IMG/VR virus record: IMGVR_UViG_2563366978_000009 | Span: 1-39,954 of that record | Origin: a virus | Lineage: Duplodnaviria; Heunggongvirae; Uroviricota; Caudoviricetes | Reading direction: 5' to 3' (one strand) | Length of the DNA stretch: 39,954 nt | In this document: positions 6,574-36,183 of the stretch, piece by piece | How the letters are laid out: each line of letters begins with the position of its first letter | How positions within the stretch are numbered: position 1 is the stretch's first letter | Translations under genes and position numbers: made by a program | The notes under the pieces: model-generated | The model's database searches: none | Seen by the model: the letters and a program-made list of their open reading frames with translations, nothing else | Told to the model about the DNA's origin: nothing

Positions 6574-6588
6574 TTACCTTTCAGGTGA
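6574..6588. promoter_or_regulatory. Operator-like palindrome TTACC-N5-GGTGA (one mismatch)
   Basis: TTACCTTTCAGGTGA in the intergenic region between the tailspike start and the LexA-boxed gene. Confidence 0.5.
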
Positions 6589-6625
6589 TTCGCAAAACGT
6601 GCTGGATAGCAAACAAATTATTTGA

Positions 6626-6645
6626 TACTGTATAAATATACAGTT
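6626..6645. promoter_or_regulatory. LexA (SOS) box
   Basis: TACTGTATAAATATACAGTT matches the CTGT-N8-ACAG consensus TACTGTATATATATACAGTA at 18 of 20 positions, about 20 nt upstream of the ATG at 6666. Confidence 0.75.
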
Positions 6646-6665
6646 ATTGCATGGAGAAGATTAAG

Positions 6666-6923
6666 ATGCAGCAGTATCACTATCCACTGGAAGACGGATT
6701 TACCGAAAGGATTCACACGCCGGGAGGCGTCAGGTCACTGGTGGAGGGATCGCATTTGATGAAATTACTCCGGGATCTCGATAAGGATGGATTTAATGTC
6801 GATGGCCCACTTGCCGAACTGACTGCACTGATTAACTACGTCACCAGCTCACAGATGTCTATGCGGGATCTGCAAACACATCTCGACTATTGTGCCGAAC
6901 AATTACGAAAACAAACCCGGTAA
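6666..6923 (+). CDS. Small antirepressor-like protein, paralog of the C-terminal domain of the AntA-type protein at 8074..8730
   Basis: Start at 6666 with GGAG RBS (ATG at 6651 lacks an RBS and abuts the LexA box). About 40 percent identity by eye to the C-terminal 75 aa of the 8074..8730 product (shared PL, IH.P.GV, LM.LL, DG..V.G..AEL, RD.QTH). Confidence 0.6.
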   Translation: MQQYHYPLEDGFTERIHTPGGVRSLVEGSHLMKLLRDLDKDGFNVDGPLAELTALINYVTSSQMSMRDLQTHLDYCAEQLRKQTR

Positions 6924-6930
6924 ATTTAAA

Positions 6931-6946
6931 GGCCGCAAGAGCGGCC
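6931..6946. terminator. Hairpin between convergent genes
   Basis: GGCCGC AAGA GCGGCC; shared by the + gene ending at 6923 and the - gene ending at 6946. Confidence 0.45.
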
Positions 6947-7674
6947 TATCGTTTCGCTTTGTGCTCATCCCAGCACGTTTTGCACCATGCCATTAAGCCG
7001 TCCGCATTTTGATTATTAGGGTAAAAGCTGGTTCGTTTTCTGCGGACATTACAAATTGGGCACCACTTCATATGGCGTGTATTCTTTGGGCCATCGAGAC
7101 ACCTTGCACACCACTTAGTCAATCCATCTGGATTTTTTGACGATTTCCTGAATTTTTCATATGGAAGGTTTATTCTGCATCGCAAGCACTGCTTGCTACC
7201 ACTTGAAACTCTGTTAGCTGATTCTTCTTTTGGCGGCGATACAGAAGGTATTCTTGCTGGCTCTGATACTGCCTGAGGTGCTTTTTTAGATGACTGAGAC
7301 GATATGTCACCACCAGGGAATCTTCCATGATATGCCGGACGCGTTGACACTCCAGGTGGAAGCTCAGCTGTAAACGGCTTTGACTGAATCAGTTGCCTCT
7401 CTTTTGCTAACTCCTGCTGTTTATAATATGTCTGGATTACCGCACTATCATAAGCAGGAGGTGCGGAAATATTAGGCGCATTACCTCCAGTTTTTTGAAA
7501 CTGAGTAGAGGTGTGTTCTATCACCTGTGTACGATTAATCGTTATCTCCCCATCTTCGGTCTTTATCGTTTTGTTATGATTAACGACCGTACGATCAGAG
7601 ATCTTAGTCTTGTTCTGGTTGATAACGTAAATAATCACCGCAACCACACCAACAACTATCCAGAAAACTTCCAT
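6946..7674 (-). CDS. Membrane-anchored protein with Pro/Ser-rich linker and C-terminal triple zinc-ribbon-like repeats
   Basis: N-terminal TM (MEVFWIVVGVVAVIIYVI); C-terminus has CLRC, DGLTKWCARC, KWCPIC, DGLMAWCKTC. No family recognised. Confidence 0.6.
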   Translation of the reverse strand: MEVFWIVVGVVAVIIYVINQNKTKISDRTVVNHNKTIKTEDGEITINRTQVIEHTSTQFQKTGGNAPNISAPPAYDSAVIQTYYKQQELAKERQLIQSKPFTAELPPGVSTRPAYHGRFPGGDISSQSSKKAPQAVSEPARIPSVSPPKEESANRVSSGSKQCLRCRINLPYEKFRKSSKNPDGLTKWCARCLDGPKNTRHMKWCPICNVRRKRTSFYPNNQNADGLMAWCKTCWDEHKAKR

Positions 7675-7694
7675 TTCTTTTCCTCACAATAACA

Positions 7695-7709
7695 TTACCT
7701 TAAAGGTAA
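7695..7709. promoter_or_regulatory. Operator palindrome TTACC-N5-GGTAA (perfect)
   Basis: TTACCTTAAAGGTAA, followed by a degenerate copy cTTGCTTTCAGGTGA at 7713..7727. Confidence 0.55.
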
Positions 7710-7787
7710 TATCTTGCTTTCAGGTGATCAAGCGTTAAACCCAATAAACCAAATACGGTTGATTTTAATATTTCTTCGCGTTTATAA

Positions 7788-7802
7788 TTACCTTTGCGGT
7801 AA
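7788..7802. promoter_or_regulatory. Operator palindrome TTACC-N5-GGTAA (perfect), overlapping a TATAAT -10
   Basis: TTTATAATTACCTTTGCGGTAA; TATAAT at 7783..7788. Confidence 0.55.
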
Positions 7803-7892
7803 ATTTACATCGCACTCCTCTTGTGCCATAGTAATCGGGCACTGGCAAAATCCAGTGCCGGGATTGGTCTCCCGGATTACTAAGTGGCGCAT

Positions 7893-7915
7893 ACCACGCC
7901 AGACGTGGTTTTTTT
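7893..7915 (+). terminator. Intrinsic terminator or attenuator inside the long leader of the AntA-type gene
   Basis: ACCACG CCAGA CGTGGT followed by seven T, preceded by another 8-bp hairpin at 7837..7860, about 160 nt upstream of the ATG at 8074. Confidence 0.5.
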
Positions 7916-8073
7916 ATGCGTATAGCACAGTCATGCCAGAATTATGGTGGGCTGAATGGGGGTCCGAAAGGACGCCGGTACCACTTAGGCCGGTAAGACC
8001 AACTCCGTTCAGTTCACCACCATCTGATTGGTCTCAGCGGTGGTGATGTAATTCGCTAAGTGGAGACGCCATC

Positions 8074-8730
8074 ATGAACGCTCAACTCATCCCCGTATTC
8101 AACGGCACTATATCTAACGAAACAGCCCTACTTTGTAATGCCCGCGATCTGCACGCTTTTTTAGGTGTTAAAAAGGTGTTTGCAGCATGGATTACAAATC
8201 GCATATCAGAATACGAATTCATTGAAAATCAAGACTATATTTTGCTTTCCAATTTGGGAAAGCAAACATCTGGTAGAGGCGGCCACAACCGCAAAGAGTA
8301 CCACCTCACCCTTGATACAGCCAAAGAGCTGGCGATGGTCGAGCGTAACGAAAAAGGTCGCCAGGTGCGACGCTACTTCATTGAATGCGAGAAACGTTTA
8401 AGACAACAAGAAACAAAAGTGGAGAAGGTCTTGTCAGGCTTCATGCCCGCCATTATGGAGGCGATCAAGCTGGAAGACAAAAAAGAATACAGCGCCCCAC
8501 TGAAGCCCGGCTACCGCAGTCTGATTCATTCTCCGTCTGGTGTTCTCGGCCTGACGGAGAACTCACTGCTGATGAATCTGCTGAACCAGTTACAGGACGA
8601 CGGGCACGACGTATCGGGCGCGGCGGCGGAGCTGACCACCATGTTCTGCTACATCGTCGGTGTGAGCAAATGCCTGCGTGATATCCAGACCCACGCGGAG
8701 TACATCAACGACAAGGCAGGGTTCTTCTGA
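8074..8730 (+). CDS. Antirepressor, AntA-type N-terminal domain
   Basis: 218 aa; N-terminal block LH.FLGV..F..W...R...YEF.E..DY...LT.D.AKELAM.ERNEKG...R.YFIECE as recalled for AntA/AntB; GGAG RBS; C-terminal domain paralogous to 6666..6923. Confidence 0.65.
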
Positions 8731-8801
8731 CGGCGGCGGCACAGGGATGTGCCTTTAAATAATTCTGTACAGATTGCAGACTGTGGGTGAATAGCGTACT
8801 A

Positions 8802-8816
8802 TTACCTCAAGGGTAA
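8802..8816. promoter_or_regulatory. Operator palindrome TTACC-N5-GGTAA (perfect)
   Basis: TTACCTCAAGGGTAA, about 60 nt upstream of the small ORF at 8877. Confidence 0.55.
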
Positions 8817-8876
8817 ACGGATTGGTTTCATTTTTATTAATCCGTGTAATGAACTTATGAGATATGAGGTAATGTC

Positions 8877-9056
8877 ATGCGAAACGAAAAATTGCAGATG
8901 CGTAGAGCGCAAGCTGCCGCAAGACGTTCTTTCAATGGAAGCGTAGAGTACGTAAAAGTTACTATGACAAAAGATCACGCAAGTCGCGTATCCCGCGCTT
9001 TCTTTGATTCTCGTAACAATAAGGAAAATTATGAGTTCGTCTGCGTCGCAGAATGA
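8877..9056 (+). CDS. Small basic ORF (59 aa) overlapping the YafO-like gene start; candidate antitoxin
   Basis: GAGG RBS 7 nt upstream; below the 60-aa track cutoff; 26-nt overlap with the next gene in another frame. No family recognised. Confidence 0.3.
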   Translation: MRNEKLQMRRAQAAARRSFNGSVEYVKVTMTKDHASRVSRAFFDSRNNKENYEFVCVAE

Positions 9057-9576
9057 TAAAAATCAAATTGTCAGATATAAGGGTCGAGTGTTGCATACGC
9101 AAAATTTCTCGGCCCTTTGTGCATCTGATCTTGAGCTGAAGAAAGTATCTGATGCCTTTACCCAGTATTGGAAAACGGGATACCATCCATCTCTTGGTAA
9201 AGATGCTGCATTTGCTCGTCCGACAGAAATGCTTAAACTAAATGTCAGGCATACTCATGTCGATAACCAAGACTATATTCCAGAAGATAGTGATAAAAAA
9301 CACACTGGTAAAAAATCATCTTGGGATGCATGGAAAAATATAGCGTCTGTACAAGTAAAATGCATACCAACAAGTGATTGCTTTTTAGTTTATTCGGTAA
9401 ATCACAATCGTGATGCGCTGGTTATGTTTTTTGTTGACGCAGATGCTCACAACATAACTGAGCAAGAAGAGTTTAAAGAGGAAGCAATCACTATCAGTTA
9501 TCAATTCTTTGAGAAAACAAAAACAGAACCAATGCCTTTAGAAGAAGATCTTTTTTCTGATAAATGGAAGGAATAG
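9031..9576 (+). CDS. YafO-family toxin-like protein
   Basis: ATG at 9031 with AAGGA RBS (track ORF starts at an upstream TTG). Blocks SDAFTQYWKTG, LGKDAAFA, VRHTHVDNQDYIP, CFLVYSVNHNRDALVMFFVDA parallel YafO as recalled (FISYKRDG, FGRDALY, VAHIHLANENNPFP, AHLVYCQGAFDEQAWLLIAIL). Low GC. Confidence 0.5.
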   Translation: MSSSASQNDKNQIVRYKGRVLHTQNFSALCASDLELKKVSDAFTQYWKTGYHPSLGKDAAFARPTEMLKLNVRHTHVDNQDYIPEDSDKKHTGKKSSWDAWKNIASVQVKCIPTSDCFLVYSVNHNRDALVMFFVDADAHNITEQEEFKEEAITISYQFFEKTKTEPMPLEEDLFSDKWKE

Positions 9577-9596
9577 CCCGCAGCGCGGGCTTTTTT
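9576..9596 (+). terminator. Rho-independent terminator
   Basis: GCCCGC AGC GCGGGC followed by six T, directly after the stop at 9574..9576. Confidence 0.7.
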
Positions 9597-9668
9597 GTGG
9601 ACGAAACAAAAGTCAGTGCTACACTCATTGACGCCACATTGAGGTGGCTTATAGATGGAAATTTCACA

Positions 9669-9830
9669 ATGAAAAAAGCATTTGCTGCACTGTTCGTTTT
9701 GTTGTCTCTGGTAGCTTCAACTCAGGCCTTTGCCGGTCGTTGTCAGCACGACAGCGATACTGCTGCTGACGGCTCCCGCTGCGGTGGGCGTTCTGCGGAT
9801 TCCCGTCCGGGCGGCGGTGGCATTCGTTAA
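9669..9830 (+). CDS. Small secreted Cys-containing peptide (53 aa)
   Basis: Signal peptide MKKAFAALFVLLSLVASTQAFA then a Gly/Arg/Ser-rich 31-aa tail with two Cys; higher GC than its neighbours. Could be spurious. Confidence 0.35.
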   Translation: MKKAFAALFVLLSLVASTQAFAGRCQHDSDTAADGSRCGGRSADSRPGGGGIR

Positions 9831-9858
9831 AAACAAGGCCGCGAAAGCGGCCTGTTTG
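9829..9858. terminator. Bidirectional terminator between convergent genes
   Basis: A-run, GGCCGC GAAA GCGGCC, then TGTTTG. Confidence 0.6.
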
Positions 9859-9859
9859 A

Positions 9860-10711
9860 TCACTGTGCAGTTTTCGCTGATCGATTTTCAGCTCTAAATT
9901 CAAGAACCGTTTCAATATTTCTTTCCTTCAGCATATCAATAACATTTTTATTCATTTGACTATCACTGGTTAATAACTGGTAAACGTCGCTTCTCTCTTT
10001 ATCAGAGTTTTCTTTAACAGCTGCTTTGCATGCCAAATGCTTATTGAAATTTTCTACATCGCTAGTACAGGAATTTACGGCTGCTGATGAAATATCAGAC
10101 GCTGAAGAAACACCATCATCCAAACGTTTTATAGCATTTTCTATACATGAGTTAAGGGAATAAACGACAACTGAGCGATACCCTTCAGACGCACACCATT
10201 CTAAATTTCTTGAAGGATCGAGTGGTTTTACTTCGCTGGATTGAATTAACTTGTCAAAAACTGACTTATATTCAATCTGTTTTTTATCTATAGCCCATAC
10301 TTCAGTAGCTGATTTATAATTCCCCGTATGCCTATTAACATCAAATCCATGTTTTATAAGCAAATCTGCCCATGAAAGATTTATTGATTCATTGTTATGA
10401 GGCCATTTTCCTGTCAGAACCGCCCCCATAGACCCCATATATCCGCCATATGATGGTATAGCACCATGGCTCAGTAACTTCTCAGCAACCACAGGGCAAT
10501 TAATTACATAAGAGGCGTAAAGCCCATTCCATAAAGCCCCTCTATAGTAATCGCCACGATTAGGTTCTTTTAAGTCGATAGCCTTTGATAATTGTTCACA
10601 CGTTTTGCATGCATCAAAGTTATCCTTATTGCATTGCAATGAACTGGCAGCTGTAGGATTTACAGAGACTATTGAAAGCACTATGCCAAAAAACAAATTT
10701 ATTTTTTTCAT
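9860..10711 (-). CDS. Secreted protein with possible ankyrin-like repeats; last gene of the virion operon
   Basis: Start 2 nt after the gp16-like stop; signal peptide MKKINLFFGIVLSIVSVNPTAAS; segments VVAEKLLSHGAIP and ADLLIKHGFDVNRHTGNYKSAT resemble ankyrin repeats (tentative); low GC. Confidence 0.6.
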   Translation of the reverse strand: MKKINLFFGIVLSIVSVNPTAASSLQCNKDNFDACKTCEQLSKAIDLKEPNRGDYYRGALWNGLYASYVINCPVVAEKLLSHGAIPSYGGYMGSMGAVLTGKWPHNNESINLSWADLLIKHGFDVNRHTGNYKSATEVWAIDKKQIEYKSVFDKLIQSSEVKPLDPSRNLEWCASEGYRSVVVYSLNSCIENAIKRLDDGVSSASDISSAAVNSCTSDVENFNKHLACKAAVKENSDKERSDVYQLLTSDSQMNKNVIDMLKERNIETVLEFRAENRSAKTAQ

Positions 10712-10712
10712 C

Positions 10713-17879: not shown

Positions 17880-20344
17880 CAGAATCCCCCAACAGTAAGA
17901 CGAGGAATAACGGCAAGAACAGACAGCGGCAACGGGTCAAGCTGACGGATTCTTACACGTCCGTTTTTGCCCCAGTTACTGTCCAGTTTCACTTCTACTT
18001 TTCCGGTAGCGTCATCAACAGGATCATCGTAGAACTCGAATTCACGCTGTGGATATTCGTACCATTTACCGCCGGGCGTAGTCGCCCAGATGCCACGACT
18101 GGCATTCACAACCAGAGTAACGGACGGGATCACCTGTTTTTTGTCCAGCAGCGTTTCCTGTCCGTTAATGTTGATATCCAGTGTTTCGAATTCAGCAGTT
18201 ATTGGCAGGCCGATGTGCACTACAGCCCCAGGTGATTCCAGCGTGACGGCACCTCCGGAAACCACTTTCTGTGGTTCCACGTTCGCATCAGAGAGAATGT
18301 TTACGGTCTGGCCTTCAAGATGAGACAGGCCTCCAAATGTCCGGCGCGCCATCTGCCAGTTCGTGGTGGCCACATTCCTGAGGGATGGCGGGACGTTCCT
18401 GTTAGCACGAACCACTACAGCGGTATTGCTGGTTACAGAAATAATGTCGCAACGTAATTCTTTTGACACTTCAGTATCAGGATCAGTTCCGGTATAAGGG
18501 AACTGTAGTTGCGCGCCGACATCACTACTGGTGAAGTACGCACCACCAGAAACACTGATTGTATATTCCGCACGGTAATCCCATTCACCAGAACCACCAG
18601 TGATGGTCATCGTTCTGTCAGACGTATTTCTTCCATCATAGCTAAGGCCAGAATCAACAAAGAAAGCATCTTCATCGCTGGTAAATAAACGGCTGGACAG
18701 TCGCTCTATGTATCTCACTGTTTGCCCGTTAACGGTTCGGTTAACGACGAAATACACCGCATCTTCATTGCCTTCGCTGATACTGCATGTGCTTTCATAT
18801 TTTCCGGTACTGGATTGTGGTGCCCATGCAAAAACCTGCTGATCACGCAAATAGGTCATCACCAGTAATTTACCGTCATCACGAATGCAGAAGGCGCTGG
18901 AGTAAGGGACAATCGAGAAGCACCAGTCAACAATGCTGTGCTTCTGAAAAAGATGATTGGCAAGGATGGTCAGGTCGTTCCCCTGATAGCCGTCAACATC
19001 GAATGAGTAGGCCAGATCACGGACAACACTGCCTTTCTCCTGGACGAACAGAGCAATATTCGCCACGGCAATTGGTGGGACATTGCTCGAGCCATTTGAT
19101 CCCTGAGAGCTGAATGCAAATGATGATGGGGTAAGCACTTTGTTCTGGTCGCCAGTGATGACGTACTCACCTCCGGAAGTCAGCGCCACCAGCGAACCAA
19201 CATCAATCAGGTGACGGATCTCATTAACCTGACGCCCGGCATAGGTGTAGATAATTCTGTCGTCATCCTGCGTAGGATTGCTTTTGCCAAAATCCTTATA
19301 ATCCCCGGTACGGCTGGCCCAGATAGTCTGAGGGAACGCAGTCGATGCGGCGAAGTAAAGGCGTTGTTGATAATAAACAACAGTGCCAGGATAACCGTTA
19401 ATACTGTTCCAGGCATATTTAGCCCATTTATAGCTGGCATTATCCTCGCCAACTACCTGCGAAGGGATATAGGAAATCACCTCGGCAGTTGCAGTAGTTC
19501 CATTTGCAGCAGAGATACGGGCAATGCCAAAACCACTGTGCAGATACTCCCACTCAATGCCGGTATCATCATCACCGGATCCGCCCCAGCCATCCCATGA
19601 TGTGCCTTCTGTATGCGAAGGGCGCAAAGTGCCTGTTTTGCCTGCTGTAACGGCGCGATAGTAGTTACTGTCTGCACGGCGAATATCGCCAATCGACGTA
19701 CTCTTACTGGTTTCCCATACCGGCACAGAATCCACTGCAGGCTGTTCCAGATAGAACAATTTGCCTACCTGCTCCGCGCCAAAAATTGAGGCGCTTGCCG
19801 TTAACGTAATTGTCCCGGTGCTGGCGCTGGCATAAACCGTCACTGACTCGTCAATATTGATATCTTCAAATGGCCCGTTCTTCGTTACCACATCAACCAG
19901 TTGCCAGTTGTCATGCGCATAGCGGCGCAACTCTTTCGGCGGGTATGCCGGATGAACCAGCGTAAGCACGTCTGCGCTTTGCGTGAATTTAATTCGGAAC
20001 AGATCGGCTTCAGTATATGGCGTGGCAATTTCATAAATAACATTGCTGCTGTTCAGCACCAACGCACCATCTTTGATAACGCGCATGTACTGGTGTCCGA
20101 ACTCCAGAGCATAGGTCTGAACCGTCGAGAACTGGAACGGGATCAGGCGGCATTTCCGATTTGGGTATTTGGCGGCACCGACAAAACGCGTACCAGGTCG
20201 ATTCTCAACGCCGCCATACTGCCGCACGATAAAGTTATCGCACTTGCGCAATGCCACCTGGTACTTCGCCATGTCGATACGACCGTACAACGACGGTCCA
20301 ATCTCACCACCGGCAAAGCTGGGCTGGATCCAACTGATAGCCAT
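17879..20344 (-). CDS. Tail tubular protein B, T7 gp12-like
   Basis: 821 aa; N-terminus MAISWIQPSFAGGEIGPSLYGRID follows the gp12 pattern (I.Q....GG...P); follows the gp11-like gene. Confidence 0.6.
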   Translation of the reverse strand: MAISWIQPSFAGGEIGPSLYGRIDMAKYQVALRKCDNFIVRQYGGVENRPGTRFVGAAKYPNRKCRLIPFQFSTVQTYALEFGHQYMRVIKDGALVLNSSNVIYEIATPYTEADLFRIKFTQSADVLTLVHPAYPPKELRRYAHDNWQLVDVVTKNGPFEDINIDESVTVYASASTGTITLTASASIFGAEQVGKLFYLEQPAVDSVPVWETSKSTSIGDIRRADSNYYRAVTAGKTGTLRPSHTEGTSWDGWGGSGDDDTGIEWEYLHSGFGIARISAANGTTATAEVISYIPSQVVGEDNASYKWAKYAWNSINGYPGTVVYYQQRLYFAASTAFPQTIWASRTGDYKDFGKSNPTQDDDRIIYTYAGRQVNEIRHLIDVGSLVALTSGGEYVITGDQNKVLTPSSFAFSSQGSNGSSNVPPIAVANIALFVQEKGSVVRDLAYSFDVDGYQGNDLTILANHLFQKHSIVDWCFSIVPYSSAFCIRDDGKLLVMTYLRDQQVFAWAPQSSTGKYESTCSISEGNEDAVYFVVNRTVNGQTVRYIERLSSRLFTSDEDAFFVDSGLSYDGRNTSDRTMTITGGSGEWDYRAEYTISVSGGAYFTSSDVGAQLQFPYTGTDPDTEVSKELRCDIISVTSNTAVVVRANRNVPPSLRNVATTNWQMARRTFGGLSHLEGQTVNILSDANVEPQKVVSGGAVTLESPGAVVHIGLPITAEFETLDININGQETLLDKKQVIPSVTLVVNASRGIWATTPGGKWYEYPQREFEFYDDPVDDATGKVEVKLDSNWGKNGRVRIRQLDPLPLSVLAVIPRLTVGGF

Positions 20345-26050: not shown

Positions 26051-26118
26051 ATCAATGACTCCGTACGCAATTAAATTATTACCAATTTAACCACATATGA
26101 TTTATTTATCGTAGATAG

Positions 26119-26155
26119 TTGACATTTAACGCACAAATTATTACCTTTCAGGTAA
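26119..26155. promoter_or_regulatory. TTGACA -35 element followed by operator palindrome TTACC-N5-GGTAA (perfect, 26141..26155)
   Basis: TTGACA at 26119..26124; TTACCTTTCAGGTAA 17 nt downstream; candidate promoter for the plus-strand tRNA island. No clear -10. Confidence 0.45.
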
Positions 26156-26477
26156 GTAAAGGATTCATTCCGGTTATTAACCTGACTGGCTTGTCGTTAA
26201 ATTGAACAGGTGGAGTGAGCTTTTATTTTGAGCAGTACGGCGTATGGCACATGCGCCGATAGCGGTCTGGATACGTTTAAGGGGCACCCTCCCTTGCTCG
26301 GGCAAACGAACCAGGTAGCCGGAATGTGCAAGTCGAGCGGTTTTATTCCGCGCACGGGGATTCACCATCCCGGCGATTCGGTGTGACGCCTCGGAAGAGA
26401 CGAGGGTACAACGATGAGAGCATTTATGGAGCCGCGACAAAGTGTGGTGCCTTAACAGGCTAAGTGCTCTCAGCGTT

Positions 26478-26554
26478 GTGGCATTAGCTCAGTTGGACAG
26501 AGCAACCGCCTTCTAAGCGGTTGGTCGCAGGTTCGAATCCTGCATGCCACGCCA
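26478..26554 (+). tRNA. tRNA-Arg (anticodon UCU), phage-encoded
   Basis: Hand-folded cloverleaf: acceptor GUGGCAU/AUGCCAC, D-arm GCUC-AGUUGGACA-GAGC, anticodon stem ACCGC/GCGGU with loop CUUCUAA, T-arm GCAGG-UUCGAAU-CCUGC, discriminator G, encoded CCA. Confidence 0.9.
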
Positions 26555-26597
26555 GAATCACGCCTAAGGACCGTGATGCCAGAAGTTCCAGGGGCTT

Positions 26598-26639
26598 GGC
26601 GGTGATGGTTTCCCTTGAAGGACTATCACCGCCCTTTTT
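26598..26639 (+). terminator. Hairpin plus T-run downstream of the tRNA
   Basis: GGCGGTGAT / ATCACCGCC 9-bp stem, 18-nt loop, then CTTTTT. Confidence 0.45.
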
Positions 26640-26717
26640 ACAGCAGGACGCCATTGCGATGACTTCATGCTGTAAACCAGTACAGCCACGGAAGGCATAA
26701 CTCATTGCTTCCAGTTC

Positions 26718-26741
26718 GCCCGGTTCGCCGGGCATTTTTTT
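26718..26741 (+). terminator. Rho-independent terminator
   Basis: GCCCGG TTCG CCGGGC followed by A and seven T. Confidence 0.7.
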
Positions 26742-26757
26742 GCTTGATGACCGCAAA

Positions 26758-26772
26758 TTACCTTAAAGGTAT
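26758..26772. promoter_or_regulatory. Operator palindrome TTACC-N5-GGTAT (one mismatch) fused to a TATAAT -10
   Basis: TTACCTTAAAGGTATAAT; TATAAT at 26770..26775. Confidence 0.5.
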
Positions 26773-26800
26773 AATCATGAAAAACTTCAAGGTAATTAGC

Positions 26801-29067: not shown

Positions 29068-29660
29068 TGATTACCATCCTGACGTTCTTTGAGTCGCTTC
29101 CTGGCTGCTGCTATGCGATCAGCAATTGTCACATTCACATTAACATCCAGGCGTTCTTTGAATGCGTTGACGTCGACGTGCTTACCAATCAGTTCGAGGT
29201 TCTTCACCTTGTCAGGCCATTTAATTTTTTTGAGGATTGTCTCTATCGAATCCTCGTTCATGTTCATGATGGTCGATGACAGATCAAAGCCGCTAAGCGT
29301 AGTGCGCCAGATTTTCGGCCACTCGCGGATTGGCTTAAGGCTCCCATCGTCGTTGAGGATGTCGATCACGTCCATCTGGTCGATCTCCACCAGGCGCATG
29401 AGAACGTAATCAGCACTGACGCGCATTCGTTTGTTGCGCTCCTCCATCAACTCGGCAATCCGTTTCTGAATGCGTTCATCGCGCATCATGACACTGGCTT
29501 TAACTGCCGCTGTATTTGGGGAGAATCCTGCGTTAATCGCAGCCTGAGTCTGATTTTCAGGCGTTTTGATGTATGACTGGCAATAAGCCTCCTGCATTGC
29601 TGTTAGTGGCTTAAATTGCGTTGATTTGCGTTTATAGGTTTTAGGTTCAGCAGGCATCAT
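29064..29660 (-). CDS. Terminase small subunit
   Basis: Start MMPAEPKTYKRK at 29660 with GGTGG RBS; the longer ORF to 29738 adds a poly-Thr extension; position before terL. Confidence 0.55.
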   Translation of the reverse strand: MMPAEPKTYKRKSTQFKPLTAMQEAYCQSYIKTPENQTQAAINAGFSPNTAAVKASVMMRDERIQKRIAELMEERNKRMRVSADYVLMRLVEIDQMDVIDILNDDGSLKPIREWPKIWRTTLSGFDLSSTIMNMNEDSIETILKKIKWPDKVKNLELIGKHVDVNAFKERLDVNVNVTIADRIAAARKRLKERQDGNQ

Positions 29661-29734
29661 AACCACCGTGGTAATAGTTACCGTTGTGGTAATAGTACCA
29701 TGCAAAATAAAGCCGCCATAGTTGGCGGCAGTAT

Positions 29735-30312: not shown

Positions 30313-30418
30313 TCCACGCCAGATTGATTAATGACTCCCAGGCAATATAAACCCGGATACCAGCAGCCAGGCCGAAACCAATCACCATGGCATAAAGCAG
30401 AGCGTTGCACTTGTTCAT
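30296..30418 (-). CDS. Small hydrophobic peptide (40 aa)
   Basis: MNKCNALLYAMVIGFGLAAGIRVYIAW, one predicted TM; start overlaps upstream stop (TAATG). Confidence 0.3.
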   Translation of the reverse strand: MNKCNALLYAMVIGFGLAAGIRVYIAWESLINLAWSAIRG

Positions 30419-31023: not shown

Positions 31024-31033
31024 TTGTTATGCC

Positions 31034-31231
31034 TCAATACACAAAATCTGTTTTAAATTCATGGTTACATTCTGGACAGCATGTTTCGTAACCTTTTATT
31101 TCTTCACATGCCTGTTTAGCTCCAGAAAACTCCCAGAAATCTGGATCACAAAGCAGATCGAAATTGTGACCACATTTGGGACATTCGGTATCAAGTGACA
31201 GACTCCAGTAAGCAGTAGTGTTTTTATCCAT
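31034..31231 (-). CDS. Small zinc-ribbon protein
   Basis: MDKNTTAYW start; CPKCGHNF ... CCPECNHEF. Confidence 0.45.
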   Translation of the reverse strand: MDKNTTAYWSLSLDTECPKCGHNFDLLCDPDFWEFSGAKQACEEIKGYETCCPECNHEFKTDFVY

Positions 31232-31232
31232 A

Positions 31233-31784
31233 TCACTCTCCTTTGATGCGAATGCCAGCGGCGCGGGAATCATTCCATCGCTTTACTTCTTCACGAATTA
31301 CGTCAATGCATTCTTTCGAATCCATTAGGTAATCTTCATCAAAAAGACGTTCCTGTTCGTTTTCTATCGCAACAATGATTGCTTCAACTAACTTTTGTGC
31401 CTGAGAATCACTTTCTAACTCTGCTATGCGCTTACTTCCATCCGAGATAACACCTTCGTAATACTCACGCTGCTCGTTGAGTTTTGATTTTGTCTCCTCA
31501 AGCTCAACTCTCAGTTTCCCTACCGTTAGCGCAATATCCTCGTTCTCCTGGTCACGGAGTTTGATGTATTGCTGGTTTCTTTCCCGTTCATCCAGCAGTG
31601 CCAGCACGGTTTCTGGTCCGGCCAGAAATTTGAAGGCGTTGAGCGCATCAATATCCACACCGTAATCTTTAAGTTCCTGTTCACTTATCAGGTCCTCATC
31701 AACTGGCAACATTAACAGGCGTTCCATTGCCGGAATTGCACGTTCTGCCGCCTCACGCAGCGCCAGTGTGTCGATATTGCTCAT
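31233..31784 (-). CDS. Ea22-like early protein
   Basis: Start MSNIDTLALREAAERA, like the conserved N-terminus of Ead/Ea22-family proteins; acidic coiled-coil body. Confidence 0.5.
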   Translation of the reverse strand: MSNIDTLALREAAERAIPAMERLLMLPVDEDLISEQELKDYGVDIDALNAFKFLAGPETVLALLDERERNQQYIKLRDQENEDIALTVGKLRVELEETKSKLNEQREYYEGVISDGSKRIAELESDSQAQKLVEAIIVAIENEQERLFDEDYLMDSKECIDVIREEVKRWNDSRAAGIRIKGE

Positions 31785-32014
31785 TGTGCCTCCTCGATTT
31801 CGTCCCATTCCACCCAAGCATTCTCTCCATCAGCATCGATTTCACCTTTGTGACCGCATTTGGAACAGACGGCCTCATCACCCGCCCACAAAGAATCTTT
31901 GGTTATCGACCATCCTGTTACCTTGGCTTTGCCGTGCTGGCACTTAGGGCAATCATCAAGCCATTCGACTTCGACCGTTGAAGGACCAAATCCATGTTCA
32001 GTTCGGATGCTCAT
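31781..32014 (-). CDS. Small zinc-ribbon protein
   Basis: MSIRTEHGF start; CPKCQHG ... CSKCGHKG; ATGA overlaps on both sides. Confidence 0.45.
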   Translation of the reverse strand: MSIRTEHGFGPSTVEVEWLDDCPKCQHGKAKVTGWSITKDSLWAGDEAVCSKCGHKGEIDADGENAWVEWDEIEEAQ

Positions 32015-32592
32015 GACTGAACTCCTTTGCGAATCTGTTCCGCCCATTCTTCAAGGGATTTCTCCGCATATTCACCGGACAGGCCATCAATCGGATGCGG
32101 TTCATTAGCCAACTCTTCTTTCGCTGACAAAATCATGCGTGTAACGTCGAAAACTTCACGCAAAGACTTATTGATAAATCCGTGATTGAACGCAGCAGCA
32201 AGACGGCTTGCGGCGTAGTTAATCCCCTCGTTGCGTGCCTCCGCACGTATTTCAGCCAGGAAAGCGTCGGTGGCTGGGGTTTCAACACGGATGCTGTCGC
32301 GCAAGATGAAAAATGCATCAAGCATTCCAGTCTCCGGCACTTCATCCTGATACTTCTCATACGCATCAAGAGCCTTCATCATCTCAGGTCCGAATGGTTG
32401 AGGGTGCGCAGACTTCATCCCCGCATTCTCCGCCGCCATCGCATTAGCACGCACCAGTTGCACTTCCAGTTGCGTTGCCAAATCGCTGATCAGCTTTGCC
32501 ACACTGCGCATATCAACGGCACCACATTCTGCTTTCAGTTCCGAAGCCATCTCATGCCCGGCGGCAACTAACCCTTTGATATTACTTTCCAT
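32011..32592 (-). CDS. Hypothetical early protein
   Basis: 193 aa, Ala-rich, no TM; coupled in the early operon. Confidence 0.5.
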   Translation of the reverse strand: MESNIKGLVAAGHEMASELKAECGAVDMRSVAKLISDLATQLEVQLVRANAMAAENAGMKSAHPQPFGPEMMKALDAYEKYQDEVPETGMLDAFFILRDSIRVETPATDAFLAEIRAEARNEGINYAASRLAAAFNHGFINKSLREVFDVTRMILSAKEELANEPHPIDGLSGEYAEKSLEEWAEQIRKGVQS

Positions 32593-32653
32593 CTTTACCC
32601 TCGCTTATCCACATAACTTATTGATTACATTGATAACTAAAAAGATCGTCGAT

Positions 32654-32998
32654 TCAGAACTTTTCGATGTTCCAGCCACCACCTGCTTTCTTTGGTTTAA
32701 CCGTTACCCCGATGATTCGGAACGGATACTGATCTGCGGCGACTTTGGTTTTCACCCTGGCGTCGTCGGTCCAGAAACCTTTCACTTCGTGCAGTTCCAT
32801 CTCGCCGGTGGCGAGCATCACAGCAAAATCGGGCGTATAGAACGTGTTGTCAGCTAACCGCAGCTTGATACCCTCAAATCGATACCAGACGATTTCTCCT
32901 GCACGTTTACGCAGCTCAAGGTGCTGGCAATACGCAGATTCTGTTTTGTTCATCTGACCTGTTTTGAGTCGACCAAGAGCCTGTATCTGTTTTCTCAT
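32654..32998 (-). CDS. DUF1064-like putative nuclease
   Basis: Pattern Y..LEL....GEI....F.......NTFYTPDF.V....GEMELHEVKG....ARVKTKVAA..YP; start preceded by GAGGTAA that lies inside an operator. Confidence 0.5.
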   Translation of the reverse strand: MRKQIQALGRLKTGQMNKTESAYCQHLELRKRAGEIVWYRFEGIKLRLADNTFYTPDFAVMLATGEMELHEVKGFWTDDARVKTKVAADQYPFRIIGVTVKPKKAGGGWNIEKF

Positions 32999-33001
32999 GA
33001 T

Positions 33002-33016
33002 TTACCTCTGAGGTAA
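33002..33016. promoter_or_regulatory. Operator palindrome TTACC-N5-GGTAA (perfect) overlapping the RBS of 32654..32998
   Basis: Minus-strand sense reads TTACCTCAGAGGTAAATC then ATG. Confidence 0.55.
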
Positions 33017-33063
33017 TTAAAAACCACATAAGACACGAAATCAATAGATTTTAGAATATTTTA

Positions 33064-33078
33064 TTACCTAACAGGTAA
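33064..33078. promoter_or_regulatory. Operator palindrome TTACC-N5-GGTAA (perfect)
   Basis: TTACCTAACAGGTAA, 62 bp centre-to-centre from the 33002 copy. Confidence 0.55.
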
Positions 33079-33115
33079 TTGTCGAGGCGTAAAAAAATGC
33101 GCTATCGCGCTGGTA

Positions 33116-33901
33116 TTACTTGATAAATCCTGCCGCCTTTCCCCGCCTGTATTCCTCCATCAGCCACTGCGCCGGTGTTATTCCCCCAAGGGTGGCGGCG
33201 TTAGGCATGCACCCGAAACTTCGCCCTGGTGGATGGTAAACGTCTCTCCCTGTGTCCGGAGGCGTACTCATGGGCTCTGGCTTTGCCTGTATGCTGATCA
33301 CCGGATCGGGTATCTGCTGTCCGGAAGCCACCTTTTTCGCCCAATCATCGAGCAGCCTGCGTGCGTGTTTCTCAACCTCAATCTCGCTAAGCTGGCGCTG
33401 ATACATTGCACGGCGGGTATCACATACGACCCAGTACATAACCGGATGTCGCCACGGGAATCTTTCGGGACCACCAGGATATAAACTTTTTTCCTTGCTG
33501 TACCGGTGAAACTCCGCCATCACATCGTCAATGGTGACGCCAAGAACCATCTTGCTGTCTTTGCACCACTTGATAAATTGCCCTGGAGACGGCCAGAACG
33601 GAGATTCACTGGCGCGGGCGTGGCGCATACCAGCAGAAACCTGTTCACGGGTTCGGATCCCCCCTTCGGCAAACGCAGCAATCCACTGCTGTTTTGCAGC
33701 AACTTCCTGCTCTGGCGTCTTCAGGTTGGTTACCACTGCCGCCGGAAACAGTTGTTTCAGCTGTTTAAAAAGGGCATCAACAAGCCTCTCTGCTGACATG
33801 TTCACCACATTGTCATTGTTGACGTACTGATGCTCATAACCTGACATGCGAGAAAGGGCTTCTCCGTCACGGTTTTGTATCGCGGTAAAAACGTTGTTCA
33901 C
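33116..33901 (-). CDS. Replication protein P-like (helicase loader)
   Basis: Block QWIAAFAEGGIRTREQVSAGMRHARASESPFWPSPGQFIKWCKD parallels lambda P (NGITTMEQVNAGMRVARRQNRPFLPSPGQFVAWCRE). Start placed at GTG 33901 (GGGAGGA RBS, GTGA overlap with O-like stop); in-frame ATG at 33916 is an alternative. Confidence 0.65.
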   Translation of the reverse strand: MNNVFTAIQNRDGEALSRMSGYEHQYVNNDNVVNMSAERLVDALFKQLKQLFPAAVVTNLKTPEQEVAAKQQWIAAFAEGGIRTREQVSAGMRHARASESPFWPSPGQFIKWCKDSKMVLGVTIDDVMAEFHRYSKEKSLYPGGPERFPWRHPVMYWVVCDTRRAMYQRQLSEIEVEKHARRLLDDWAKKVASGQQIPDPVISIQAKPEPMSTPPDTGRDVYHPPGRSFGCMPNAATLGGITPAQWLMEEYRRGKAAGFIK

Positions 33902-34713
33902 AAGAAATCCTCCCATGCTTCAGGGCTGTTCCAGTGCGGAACGTTGTTATCAGGTAATGTTGATTGCTTCTGTCTGCTAATCTGCAGCCGCCTTGCCAGC
34001 TTCTGCTCCCACTGTGCCTGATGGTATGCCTTACCCTCAGCCATCCAGTAAATTCTGAACTCTGCAAGTTCCTGTGCCGTTGGCAGACTGTCCAGGTAGA
34101 TCCCCTGCAATGAGCTTTTCCGAAGAAAGTCATCTGATGGCTGCCATTGTTCATGCATGACAAATTTGCCTAATTGCCCTGGCCCACCAGGAGGAACAAA
34201 GTTATTCATCACGGCGTTGTTTGCTCCGGGGTCATGAGGCACAGAATCCCCGCTTTTTGTCCTGCTCTCCCTCTCTTGGTTAAATGACTGGTTATATGAC
34301 TGGTTCTGGATCCCGTTTTTGGGATCATTCAACATCCCGTTTTTGGGATCATTCAACATCCCGTTTTTGGGTATATTCCCGTTTTTGGGTATATTCCCGT
34401 TTTCGGGTTCATTGCCCCCCTCCCGGTTGCCTTTAATGTTCCCGTTTTTGGTTATATTAAGAGAGAAAACCCGCACTCTTTTTGTCGCTCCCTTTCTCTC
34501 TCCGGTATCTGAAATAAGCCCCATTTTCATGAGCGATATAAGCCCGGCCTGCACGGTTTTTTTATTCAGGCAAGTGTCTTTAACGAGGCGTTCTATGCTG
34601 GGGTAGCAGAGGTTATATTCATCGGATCTGTCAGCCATCGAGAGCAGTATGAGCTTTAATGATGAGCTACCTGGATCTGTCTCCCAGGCCCAATCTGTTG
34701 CATGTCTGCTCAT
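33898..34713 (-). CDS. Replication initiator O-like protein with in-gene iterons
   Basis: N-terminal winged-helix-like domain; central NGNIPKNG / MLNDPKNG peptide repeats encoded by DNA iterons; Trp-rich C-terminus. Confidence 0.65.
   Translation of the reverse strand: MSRHATDWAWETDPGSSSLKLILLSMADRSDEYNLCYPSIERLVKDTCLNKKTVQAGLISLMKMGLISDTGERKGATKRVRVFSLNITKNGNIKGNREGGNEPENGNIPKNGNIPKNGMLNDPKNGMLNDPKNGIQNQSYNQSFNQERESRTKSGDSVPHDPGANNAVMNNFVPPGGPGQLGKFVMHEQWQPSDDFLRKSSLQGIYLDSLPTAQELAEFRIYWMAEGKAYHQAQWEQKLARRLQISRQKQSTLPDNNVPHWNSPEAWEDFL
34311..34452. repeat. Iteron array (candidate origin) inside the O-like gene
   Basis: About seven direct repeats of TCCCGTTTTTGG(G/T) with 24- and 18-bp periods, preceded by two ATGACTGGTT repeats. 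Confidence 0.7.
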
Positions 34714-34728
34714 GATTAATCTCCGCTA

Positions 34729-34929
34729 TCAGCTTGAGTGTTGTGGGGAGGAATTAATCATGATCTGCTTAATCTCTGCCCTGATGCGACGGTTTGATTC
34801 CATGGTGCACTCAACACAGTGCCCGTTGTAAACCCAGCGTTCACTGTCATGTCCATGCTTACATGGCTTTCCGGTGTAGTAGCGTTTAAGTCCGCGCTTT
34901 GCGGCATCAATACGTGTAATGATTTCCAT
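34729..34929 (-). CDS. Small Cys/His-rich protein in the cII position
   Basis: Start MEIITRIDAAKRG at 34929 (the longer ORF adds a hydrophobic extension); CKHGH ... CVEC. Confidence 0.4.
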   Translation of the reverse strand: MEIITRIDAAKRGLKRYYTGKPCKHGHDSERWVYNGHCVECTMESNRRIRAEIKQIMINSSPQHSS

Positions 34930-35009
34930 GGTAAGCCCTGTTATTAGTATTGGGATTACGGTTATTTTGTGCTGACACAAAAAAAAGATCAACCATATTT
35001 GGTTTTTTA

Positions 35010-35024
35010 TTACCTTTGAGGTAC
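35010..35024. promoter_or_regulatory. Operator palindrome TTACC-N5-GGTAC (one mismatch)
   Basis: TTACCTTTGAGGTAC between the cro-like terminator and the cII-position gene. Confidence 0.45.
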
Positions 35025-35035
35025 GAATAGATATG

Positions 35036-35057
35036 AAAAGACCGCCGGATGGCGGTC
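35036..35057 (-). terminator. Terminator downstream of the cro-like gene
   Basis: GACCGCC GGAT GGCGGTC; on the minus strand followed by TTTTC. Confidence 0.5.
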
Positions 35058-35079
35058 TACAGAGGGTTGTGGCTGGATA

Positions 35080-35310
35080 TCATGAGTAGAAGAAGTATGC
35101 CAGTTCTGCTTTTGAGCGCAGCCATTGTCTTGATTTACAGGCTTTAAAAAGCCCATCCATCAATACCTTACCTGGCATTTTGCGCTTACCTGTTAAGTGA
35201 GTCTGGATATAGTGACTCGTCGTTCCGGCTTCCTGTGCGAAGGCTTCACGCTCATCCGGAGTAAGTGCAAGCCAGTGCTTTTTGAAATCGAAATGTCCGT
35301 TATCGCTCAT
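35080..35310 (-). CDS. Cro-like small regulator
   Basis: 76 aa, divergent from the repressor across a three-operator region; candidate helix-turn-helix at TPDEREAFAQEAGTTSHYIQTHLTG. Confidence 0.55.
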   Translation of the reverse strand: MSDNGHFDFKKHWLALTPDEREAFAQEAGTTSHYIQTHLTGKRKMPGKVLMDGLFKACKSRQWLRSKAELAYFFYS

Positions 35311-35346
35311 AGCTATTGCCTGATATTTATTTCAGATAATAAATAT

Positions 35347-35361
35347 TCACCTATAAGGTAA
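35347..35361. promoter_or_regulatory. Operator copy 1 of the divergent immunity region (TCACC-N5-GGTAA)
   Basis: TCACCTATAAGGTAA. Confidence 0.55.
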
Positions 35362-35377
35362 CAAAAATCAAGGATAG

Positions 35378-35392
35378 TTACCCATGAGGTGC
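35378..35392. promoter_or_regulatory. Operator copy 2 of the immunity region (TTACC-N5-GGTGC, degenerate)
   Basis: TTACCCATGAGGTGC. Confidence 0.4.
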
Positions 35393-35394
35393 AT

Positions 35395-35409
35395 TTACCT
35401 GTTGGGTAA
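35395..35409. promoter_or_regulatory. Operator copy 3 of the immunity region (TTACC-N5-GGTAA, perfect)
   Basis: TTACCTGTTGGGTAA; the three copies have centres 31 and 17 bp apart. Confidence 0.55.
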
Positions 35410-35464
35410 TATTGCTTTAAATTGAATCATCTACTGATTCATATATGAGGCGATTTTCCAGAAA

Positions 35465-36049
35465 ATGAAAAGTATCCAGGACGTCCGCAGGCAAAATCTC
35501 AACGACTTGATCGACCGTGAATTCAATGGTGTTCAGACGCGGATGGCAGAAAAACTTGGAACTCAGGCAAATCTGGTAAACCGCTGGGCTCTTGGCAAGA
35601 AGGTTATCGGCGACCAGGTTGCGCGAAAAATTGAAGCTGCCGCCAATAAACCCCGTAACTGGCTTGATATCGATCGCTCGCTTTCTCAGGAAGGTTTTCA
35701 GCCTGTCGGCCCGAGTGATATAGGTCAGCTGGCTGCTCACAACCTGGAACGCTGGATGAGCGAAAGCCGCGACCTTTCAACGCAGGGAAAACTACACCGC
35801 GCATCCGGCGTCGCCCAGGTGACAATCAGCCGCCTGTTAAACAATGAGGTCAGCGTTTCCATTTCCACCCTGGAGAATGTTGCATCCGCATTTGGGCGTC
35901 ACGGATATGAATTACTGATTCACCCGCACGACCCCGCGACTATCAACTATGACCGCTCGCGCTACGCATTGTTACCTGAAACAGAGAAGGCAAAGATCGA
36001 AAGTTACATTGAATTTGTCATCAACCAGAACGAAAAAAACAAACAATAA
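35465..36049 (+). CDS. Prophage repressor-like protein with two tandem HTH (XRE-type) domains and no S24 peptidase domain
   Basis: 194 aa; HTH-like segments at about aa 20-45 and 120-150; no Ser/Lys autocleavage domain; operators on both sides. Confidence 0.6.
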   Translation: MKSIQDVRRQNLNDLIDREFNGVQTRMAEKLGTQANLVNRWALGKKVIGDQVARKIEAAANKPRNWLDIDRSLSQEGFQPVGPSDIGQLAAHNLERWMSESRDLSTQGKLHRASGVAQVTISRLLNNEVSVSISTLENVASAFGRHGYELLIHPHDPATINYDRSRYALLPETEKAKIESYIEFVINQNEKNKQ

Positions 36050-36071
36050 AATCATATTTTTCAGTAAGTAA

Positions 36072-36093
36072 GCCGCCTTATGGCGGCTTTTTT
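36072..36093 (+). terminator. Rho-independent terminator after the repressor gene
   Basis: GCCGCC TTAT GGCGGC followed by six T. Confidence 0.7.
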
Positions 36094-36106
36094 ATTGCCT
36101 GTTCGA

Positions 36107-36121
36107 TTACCTAACGGGTAA
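36107..36121. promoter_or_regulatory. Operator palindrome TTACC-N5-GGTAA (perfect), upstream of a -35
   Basis: TTACCTAACGGGTAA. Confidence 0.55.
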
Positions 36122-36140
36122 TTTTTTTAACTCATATCTA

Positions 36141-36183
36141 TTGACATCAAACCAAATACACATAATTATTACCTCAACGGTAA
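36141..36183 (+). promoter_or_regulatory. pL-like promoter: TTGACA -35 with operator TTACC-N5-GGTAA (36169..36183) over the -10 and start region
   Basis: TTGACA at 36141..36146; AT-rich -10 candidates around 36161..36169; perfect operator TTACCTCAACGGTAA; then GAGG RBS and ATG at 36203. Confidence 0.55.

Follow-up and report, generated by a model that had tools for sequence, protein, structure and literature searches.

Dispersed TTACC-N5-GGTAA palindromes, probable operators of the immunity repressor in a phiV10/epsilon15-type prophage

The prophage and its immunity genes

The palindrome TTACC-N5-GGTAA recurs between the genes of a prophage in IMG/VR record IMGVR_UViG_2563366978_000009, of which the whole 39,954-nucleotide stretch analysed here is called the window, and its copies most probably form the operator network of the immunity repressor Rep (35465-36049). 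The window shares 94-98% identity with phiV10, phiv142-3, EC.W1-9 and other Escherichia coli podoviruses of the genus Uetakevirus, and it is collinear with Salmonella phage epsilon15. It is thus a prophage of the phiV10/epsilon15 type (Uetakevirus), a podovirus and not a lambda-type phage. An attachment (att) core, ATTGAGTGGGAATGATT, lies at 1163-1179 and every phage match ends there, so the prophage is integrated and the window includes about 1.1 kb of the DNA next to it; its integrase end lies beyond 39954. The immunity region was found in 541 of 5,426 complete E. coli genomes. Its carriers include O157:H7 strains, and related regions occur in Salmonella and Klebsiella prophages.

Two divergent regulatory genes define the immunity region.

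35465-36049, + strand: Rep, immunity repressor of 194 aa, full-length homologue of SPC32H Rep
35080-35310, - strand: Cro-like small helix-turn-helix (HTH) protein of 76 aa, divergent from rep; matches phrog_35 (transcriptional repressor), E = 8.7e-13

Rep aligns with the crystallised Rep of Salmonella phage SPC32H, also a Uetakevirus (PDB 5D50_A; structures PDB 5D50/5D4Z), over residues 1-190 of 194 at 42% identity (phmmer E = 4e-42), and it is identical to the repressors of phiV10 and ZX5. Its Pfam matches are to HTH families only (HTH_3/HTH_26), and no S24 peptidase domain was found in it by the Pfam scan. In the solved homologue, DNA binding falls to the N-terminal domain and dimerisation to the middle one, while the C-terminal, p53-like domain forms the tetramer and also binds the antirepressor (PMC9986798). 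By its sequence, Rep would have the same layout, with an N-terminal HTH for DNA binding, a middle dimerisation domain and a C-terminal domain for tetramerisation and Ant binding. The middle domain is the region that Pfam labels HTH_3; in the solved homologue this second HTH serves dimerisation and is not a further DNA-binding domain (PMC9986798). Rep is most conserved in its N-terminal domain, and its recognition helix, NLVNRW, is invariant across the genus. The Cro-like protein shows 78-84% identity across the genus and has an invariant AGTTSHYIQ-HLT segment.

Occurrence of the palindrome

An exhaustive scan of both strands of the window found 10 perfect copies of TTACC-N5-GGTAA against 0.03 expected, with a maximum of 1 in shuffled controls that preserve dinucleotides. 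Copies with at most one mismatch number 16, against 0.86 expected from the shuffles.

Perfect sites: 7695, 7788, 8802, 26141, 29678, 33002, 33064, 35395, 36107, 36169
Sites with one mismatch: 2949, 6574, 26758, 29660, 35010, 35347

The scan and its controls confirm the motif as first proposed, including all nine perfect copies then listed and the estimate that far fewer than one would arise by chance. The earlier total of about 14 copies was real and at the same time an undercount, as 29678 and its partner 29660 had been missed. Four of the five near-copies then listed (6574, 26758, 35010 and 35347) do have one mismatch, but 35378 has two.

By a hand-curated gene map, non-coding DNA makes up 6.3% of the window, yet it holds 15 of the 16 sites (binomial P = 1.6e-17) and all 10 perfect ones. 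The intergenic placement claimed in the first pass therefore stands. Two sites needed separate judgement. Site 2949 is not counted as an operator, since both it and its equivalent in EC.W1-9 fall in coding sequence, here the gene of a membrane protein; the copy is probably due to chance. Site 29678 appeared to lie in coding sequence because of a long open reading frame (ORF) with a TTG start, which is a start-codon artefact; the annotated small terminase genes (terS) of epsilon15, Tyrion and EC.W1-9 begin directly past a pair of the 29660/29678 type, and the window has a matching ATG.

A blind count of all 5-Nx-5 and 6-Nx-6 palindromes with gaps of 0-12 identified TTACC-N5 as the sole over-represented palindrome in the window, with 10 copies where all others reach at most 3, its own register shifts excepted. 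Three prophages fetched independently gave the same result, TTACC-N5-GGTAA alone being in excess. The extended consensus reads A-TTACC(T)-N3/4-GGTAA-T. Sites with two mismatches (23 against about 11 expected) are nearly all coding and are uninformative.

Sites at the immunity region and the early promoters

Sites in the operator region between rep and the cro-like gene (OR), at PL (the promoter of the recET operon) and at the promoter of the DUF1064 operon are arranged as follows, together with the promoters that they flank.

35010-35024: single operator, one mismatch; directly past the cro terminator 35058-35039 and ahead of the small gene in cII position, 34729-34992
35347-35361: OR operator, one mismatch (TCACC...); lies across the -35 and spacer of TTGTTA-17-TATTAT, the promoter facing cro; syntenic in all relatives
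35378-35392: middle OR operator, degenerate, two mismatches
35395-35409: OR operator, perfect, rep-proximal
36107-36121: PL upstream operator O1, perfect; centre at about -62; between the rep terminator 36070-36089 and a conserved T-tract
36141-36169, + strand: PL promoter, TTGACA-17-AATTAT; the -10 ends on the T with which operator O2 begins
36169-36183: PL operator O2, perfect; covers the end of the -10 and the predicted transcription start; 62 bp from O1
33064-33078: DUF1064 operator O1, perfect; upstream of the minus-strand promoter
33016-33044, - strand: DUF1064 operon promoter, TTGATT (33044-33039), 17-nt spacer, TTTAAT (33021-33016), abutting O2
33002-33016: DUF1064 operator O2, perfect; 62 bp from O1; its GAGG doubles as ribosome-binding site, 4 nt before the ATG at 32998

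The OR and OL placement of the first-pass annotation is borne out, with three sites between the divergent rep and cro-like genes and two bracketing the TTGACA promoter of the recET operon; the remaining sites, also claimed to lie at promoters, are indeed found at those of separate transcription units. The middle OR site at 35378 is probably a weak operator: its equivalent in epsilon15, SPC32H and BUCT711 is perfect at the same 17-bp offset, and the 17/30-31 bp layout is the same in epsilon15. Operator 35010 is syntenic in phiV10, EC.W1-9, Tyrion and BUCT711. A TCGACA-16-TAAAAT promoter called by the scanner at 33085-33058 was dropped in favour of the conserved TTGATT-17-TTTAAT.

At both PL and the DUF1064 promoter, the paired operators lie exactly 62 bp apart in every genome examined. 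A scan of IMG/VR for pairs spaced by 47-77 bp gave 117 pairs at 62 bp and 19 at 63 bp, and no other spacing occurred more than 9 times; because these loci are related to one another, the count shows conservation and not independent events. The upstream operator of each pair sits at about -62, beside a conserved A/T tract. As 62 bp corresponds to about 5.9 helical turns, both operators lie on the same face of the helix. When the two brackets are compared without gaps across 8 genomes, the half-sites, the -35 elements (CTATTGAC at PL, CTATTGA at the DUF1064 promoter) and the -10 elements are invariant, so that PL always retains ATTAT/TACC and the DUF1064 promoter is kept as cTATTGA...AAT/TACC. 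The N5 spacers, the flanks and the DNA between these elements vary freely.

Across the window, three positions of the operator relative to the promoter recur, for which the transcription starts are predicted ones. In the first, the final T of the -10 is also the first base of an operator that extends over the start, as at PL O2, DUF1064 O2, the isrK/C4/ant cassette, the YafO-like unit at 8802, and terS. At 26141 and 7695 the -10 is the TACCTT of the operator itself, and the -35 lies exactly 16 nt before TTACC. At the cro promoter (35347) the operator occupies the -35 and spacer region. Operators also typically lie 15-25 bp past an intrinsic terminator, as for terminators 36070-36089 (operator 36107), 35058-35039 (35024), 29729-29712 (29692) and 26718-26733 (26758), and the terminator annotations of phiV10 agree with this layout.

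Sites at terS, the tRNA gene and the accessory units

The remaining sites are distributed over the late and accessory parts of the window.

29678-29692: terS operator, perfect; abuts the extended -10 TGgTACTAT (29700-29692, - strand), past terminator 29729-29712
29660-29674: second terS operator, one mismatch; 18 bp from 29678 and ending at the terS ATG
26141-26155: operator, perfect; left half TACCTT (26142-26147) is the -10; -35 TTGACA at 26119-26124, 16 nt before the operator
26478-26554, + strand: tRNA-Arg(UCU), downstream of the operated promoter 26119-26155
26758-26772: operator, one mismatch (GGTAT); past terminator 26718-26733, overlapping a TATAAT just before the phrog_4780 gene (ATG 26777)
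6574-6588: operator, one mismatch; in the ant/tailspike gap, about 58 bp upstream of the predicted ant transcription start; syntenic in all 8 genomes
7695-7709: operator, perfect; its half-site TACCTT is the -10 of a minus-strand promoter with -35 TTGATC at 7731-7726, 16 nt before the operator
7788-7802: operator, perfect; abuts the promoter TTGATT-18-TATAAT (7759-7788) of the isrK/C4/antirepressor cassette
8802-8816: operator, perfect; abuts a TACTAT -10-like hexamer (8797-8802), ahead of ORF 8877-9056 and the YafO-like gene 9004-9576
3205-3219: doubtful remnant, two mismatches; upstream of the lysis operon, where relatives have a site with zero or one mismatch

The extended -10 of terS is conserved as TGnTA(C/G)TAT in all relatives. 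The promoter at 26141 is conserved genus-wide and fires toward tRNA-Arg, divergently from the gp3/portal operon. Sites had been placed before both antirepressor genes in the first pass; this is right for 6574 (ant) and 7788 (the AntA-type gene), but 7695 serves gene 6946-7674, which encodes a zinc-finger/endonuclease-VII-like protein (phrog_6762). The gene at 9004-9576 (+ strand) has a marginal YafO_toxin match (26.1 bits against a cutoff of 25), and the small ORF 8877-9056 could encode its antitoxin; if so, Rep may keep a toxin-antitoxin pair silent.

A second motif, CATATnTGGTT-N5-GGTAATA, occurs twice (6522-6544 and 26077-26099, both on the - strand) against 0.07 expected. One copy adjoins the upstream side of the tailspike gene and the other that of the gp3/portal operon, both are kept in all eight Uetakevirus genomes, and the motif includes one GGTAA half-site. 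It is probably a late promoter or the site of a late activator. Direct occlusion of the tailspike and portal late promoters by 6574 and 26141 was considered and rejected, since these sites are too far upstream and divergent promoters fit them better.

Conservation and public annotation

Eleven relatives were examined, and every one has the palindrome at the same positions; their hosts are E. coli, Enterobacter, Klebsiella, Salmonella and Serratia, and the most divergent Rep among them has 42% identity. Seven of these were used as reference genomes (phiV10, EC.W1-9, Tyrion, BUCT554, BUCT711, epsilon15 and SPC32H), in which Rep identity to that of the window is 100, 78, 75, 45 and 42%. Syntenic sites in these genomes comprise the terS pair, one between gp3/portal and the tRNA, one in the ant/tailspike gap, usually one before the lysis operon, two or three at PL, three between rep and cro, one past the cro terminator, and the pair before the DUF1064/RuvC operon. 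The first-pass annotation had named a lack of conservation in related prophages as grounds for abandoning its claim; the sites are instead syntenic. E. coli and Serratia prophages in which the Rep helix reads NLVSRW or NLISRW still use TTACC-N5-GGTAA.

Part of this map is already public. The epsilon15 record (AY150271.2) carries seven protein_bind features labelled 'repressor / lysogeny', each of the form ATTACC-N5-GGTAAT. They lie before terS (12-27), before gp3 (2931-2947), in the gp19/tailspike gap (19895-19911), near PL (three sites) and before the RuvC-like gene (one site), and sites of the window match these positions at terS, the gp3 region, the ant/tailspike gap, PL and the DUF1064/RuvC promoter. 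The type species of the genus thus already has the motif on record, together with its scattered placement and its attribution to the repressor, and the first-pass view of a genome-wide operator set as unusual was overstated: with seven dispersed sites listed in AY150271.2, dispersal is normal in this group. Records of phiV10-type phages have no such repressor-site features annotated, and no description of the operator map was found in the literature searched, where a full-text search for the motif gave only primer noise.

Antirepressor genes and the LexA box

Two antirepressor modules lie close to operators 6574 and 7788.

6628-6643: LexA box CTGTATAAATATACAG, perfect; overlaps the ant promoter, 8 nt before the start of the ORF; conserved in all relatives
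6651-6923, + strand: small antirepressor Ant; PDB 5D50_E (SPC32H Ant), E = 1.6e-46; adjoins the tailspike gene 3494-6469
7839-7915, + strand: isrK-like small RNA (sRNA); Rfam RF01394, 67.7 bits, above the gathering threshold
7940-8024, + strand: C4 antisense RNA; Rfam RF01695, 61.2 bits against a gathering score of 45
8074-8730, + strand: second antirepressor; AntA N-terminal domain (Pfam E = 4.2e-26) fused to an Ant-like C-terminal domain

The LexA box before ant suggests that SOS induction probably proceeds via Ant and not by repressor cleavage. The combination of LexA box and Ant is reportedly the induction route of SPC32H, published by Kim and Ryu in 2013.

In the second module, the AntA domain is followed by a segment (residues 137-213) that matches SPC32H Ant (5D50_E, the binder of the Rep C-terminal domain) with E = 8e-14, so that the C-terminal 80 residues are homologous to Ant. 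This fusion gives the prophage two Ant-type modules, one under LexA and the other under Rep and C4 RNA. The apparent ORF after 7788 is in fact a stretch of RNA genes, isrK and C4, that precedes the AntA-type antirepressor, and ORF 7714-8046, which holds both the Hfq-binding sRNA and the C4 RNA gene, was rejected as a protein gene. phiV10, Tyrion and EC.W1-9 keep this order of operator, isrK, C4 and ant with other antirepressor genes; in their records, parts of the cassette are annotated as misc_feature or terminator, or are unannotated.

Discussion

The palindromes are most probably the operators of Rep, and we infer that Rep binds the TTACC-N5-GGTAA sites. Rep is favoured as the binder by the classical operator positions, by the epsilon15 annotation, by the palindrome binding reported for its homologue and by a tetrameric state that suits paired sites. 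In the mechanism proposed, Rep would be a tetramer of the SPC32H/epsilon15 type without an autocleavage domain. The genome is split into many short units, each with an intrinsic terminator and its own sigma-70 promoter, and for this reason each unit would carry its own operator or operators. At the 62-bp brackets a single Rep tetramer, with its two pairs of DNA-binding domains, would bridge both operators and so clamp the two flanks of the promoter. In the lysogen, the network would directly silence the early-left, early-right, replication-distal, terminase and accessory units. Induction would not require cleavage of Rep: cleavage of LexA would derepress Ant, Ant would strip Rep from the DNA, and the second antirepressor cassette, operated by Rep and controlled by C4 RNA, would then reinforce the switch.

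What is published on the homologue fits this mechanism. SPC32H Rep is described as binding palindromic sites as a tetramer and as being removed by tetrameric Ant, according to the discussion of Kim et al. 2016 in NAR 2022 and to PMC9986798. The ZX5 repressor, identical to Rep, reduces endolysin and holin transcripts by >99.9% when overexpressed (PMC9782041). One structural paper adds that the repression mechanism 'has not been extensively characterized' (PMC9986798).

Several observations weigh against the assignment to Rep or against parts of the mechanism. In the Rep crystal, pairs of dimerisation domains are only ~100 Å apart (PMC9986798), so that bridging 62 bp would need flexible linkers or bending of the DNA. 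The operator stays invariant even where the recognition helix is NLVSRW or NLISRW, with no covariation between repressor and operator; the related-locus search with Rep alignment yielded only 100%-identical repressors, the recognition helix itself having been the search pattern. The Cro-like protein is even more conserved than Rep, and with no covariation available, conservation cannot separate the two as binder. The epsilon15 protein_bind features may be in-silico predictions. Finally, 6574 and 26141 sit 70-80 bp upstream of the late-promoter-like motif, and direct repression of the tailspike and portal units is not evident.

The binder could instead be the Cro-like protein, acting as a genome-wide regulator of the lytic phase. 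This is improbable, although the protein matches a transcriptional-repressor family (phrog_35), its conservation across the genus with an invariant HTH segment accounts for the unchanging motif no less well than that of Rep, and operators are shared by Cro and CI in lambda-type switches. In the epsilon15 record the sites are attributed to the repressor, SPC32H Rep is itself reported, in the discussion cited above, to bind palindromic DNA as a tetramer, pairs set 62 bp apart are more easily reconciled with a tetramer than with a Cro-like protein of 76 aa, and Rep overexpressed alone silences lytic genes (PMC9782041). By analogy with those switches, the Cro-like protein probably shares at least the OR operators with Rep, and such shared binding at OR is compatible with a Rep network.

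Less probable again is another regulator, whether one of the other putative regulators that the prophage encodes (PerC-like, AlpA-like or N15-gp46-like) or a conserved enterobacterial host factor, which could explain why the motif is identical in phages of five host genera. The densest cluster of sites, in the rep/cro gap and around PL, occupies classical operator positions, and by comparison of annotations the accessory regulators are missing from some relatives that keep the sites. We know of no enterobacterial regulator with the consensus ATTACC-N5-GGTAAT. That the repeats are iterons, packaging signals or recombination hot spots, or an accident of composition, without a role in transcription, is hardly credible. 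One pair does lie at the start of terS, a frequent location of pac sites, and sites flank the junctions of mosaic modules; chance is nevertheless excluded by the shuffles, no iteron-like clustering is seen near the replication genes, and neither the repeated -10/-35 register nor the invariant 62-bp brackets would have a rationale in structural repeats.

By every testable criterion the system in the window is a member of the Uetakevirus (epsilon15/SPC32H-type) Rep/operator/Ant system. It shares with SPC32H and epsilon15 a full-length Rep homologue, a close Ant homologue, the LexA box at ant, identical TTACC/GGTAA half-sites, the same site positions and the same 62-bp brackets. Its lineage differs in having two PL operators rather than three and in the degenerate middle OR and lysis-operon sites, and it has extra operators that are absent from the Salmonella phages, at isrK/C4/AntA, the YafO-like unit, the phrog_6762 gene and the phrog_4780 gene.

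The C1 systems of P1 and P7 are alike in using a single repressor with many scattered operators, and the P1 immI arrangement (Op51-c4-icd-ant) is matched by the operated promoter at 7759-7802, the C4 RNA and the AntA-type antirepressor gene that follows. However, Rep is an Xre-type HTH tetramer and not of the C1 family, and the window operators are palindromic 15-17-mers, whereas those of P1 C1 are asymmetric 17-mers; the genome type and the induction route, here through LexA-controlled Ant, differ as well. The resemblance to P1 C1 suggested in the first pass therefore survives as a functional analogy, literal for the C4/ant cassette, without homology to C1 or its operators. Mycobacteriophages L5 and Bxb1 likewise have many sites genome-wide, including the late region, and the terS pair, which lies downstream of a terminator and promoter, could also block read-through. 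Their stoperators are asymmetric and orientation-dependent and mostly block elongation within transcription units, in contrast to the window sites, which are symmetric, 15/16 intergenic and in register with promoter -10 and -35 elements. With lambda the prophage shares divergent repressor and cro genes, a three-site OR, an operated left promoter and repressor oligomers that probably bridge operators, but Rep lacks an S24 autocleavage domain, the operators occupy at least 10 separate loci and not OL and OR alone, and a fixed 62-bp micro-distance around a single promoter takes the place of a 2.4-kb loop. As most units have their own operated promoter, a PL/PR antitermination cascade would seem not to be needed for them.

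The operators of the window are a further, unannotated example of a known and already annotated system, and no new kind of regulation. What may go beyond the published description is the strict 62-bp bracket, the pair at terS with its extended -10 promoter, the fact that every accessory cassette carries an operator, and the invariance of the code down to 42% Rep identity. This invariance suggests a single, possibly cross-reacting immunity group. A stronger version, in which the TTACC-N5-GGTAA code and the 62-bp bracket are frozen across the phage group (Rep 42-100%; Escherichia, Salmonella, Klebsiella, Enterobacter and Serratia), is put forward tentatively, as possible rather than probable. 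If it were true, the prophages in ~10% of complete E. coli genomes would constitute one cross-repressing and cross-inducible immunity group, some fifteen dispersed operators would keep immunity specificity from diverging, and repression by the p53-like Rep tetramer would consist in clamping a promoter micro-loop of 62 bp. In the literature searched we found none of these three points described.

The map also has more immediate uses. It points to the genes that would be silent in the lysogen (terminase, recombination and replication-distal genes, the toxin-like module, two antirepressors and the tRNA) and to operator-less genes that are possibly expressed there, and it would explain how SOS induction through Ant can switch on many units together. 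With its strict 62-bp bracket, the compact set of repressor, operators and antirepressors offers a test case for repression by a p53-like tetramer.

Other features of the prophage and related loci

The same tRNA-Arg is present in phiV10 (L001 2856-2929), where it overlaps an annotated coding sequence, PhiV10p04; this overlap makes PhiV10p04 a probable mis-annotation. Window ORFs 26177-26440 and 26484-26756 are similarly doubtful as genes.

A one-mismatch copy of the palindrome (TTACC-N5-GGTAT, within ggTATTACC...GGTATAc) lies directly upstream of the integrase gene, in the att arm, in every relative. These copies fall outside the window, at the following positions in the related loci: L001 26870, L002 26882, L003 28568, L004 26960, L005 12620, L006 19769 and L007 34244. 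The epsilon15 record marks an integrase-binding site there, and because the whole region is highly conserved, operator status cannot be judged for this copy.

Six IMG/VR loci (L019, L034, L066, L078, L113 and L127) contain arrays of 3-6 TTACC-N5-GGTAA copies at 18-35 bp spacing. No Rep homologue is present in the fetched stretch of these loci, and the arrays may be iterons or operators of an unrelated regulator that shares the half-site.

The first 1.1 kb of the window (1-1162) is non-phage DNA, with genes for a glycine-zipper/TraT-like lipoprotein (1-516) and for a DUF5384 protein (532-1071). This flank is not guaA, which adjoins the integrase end in prophages of this type.

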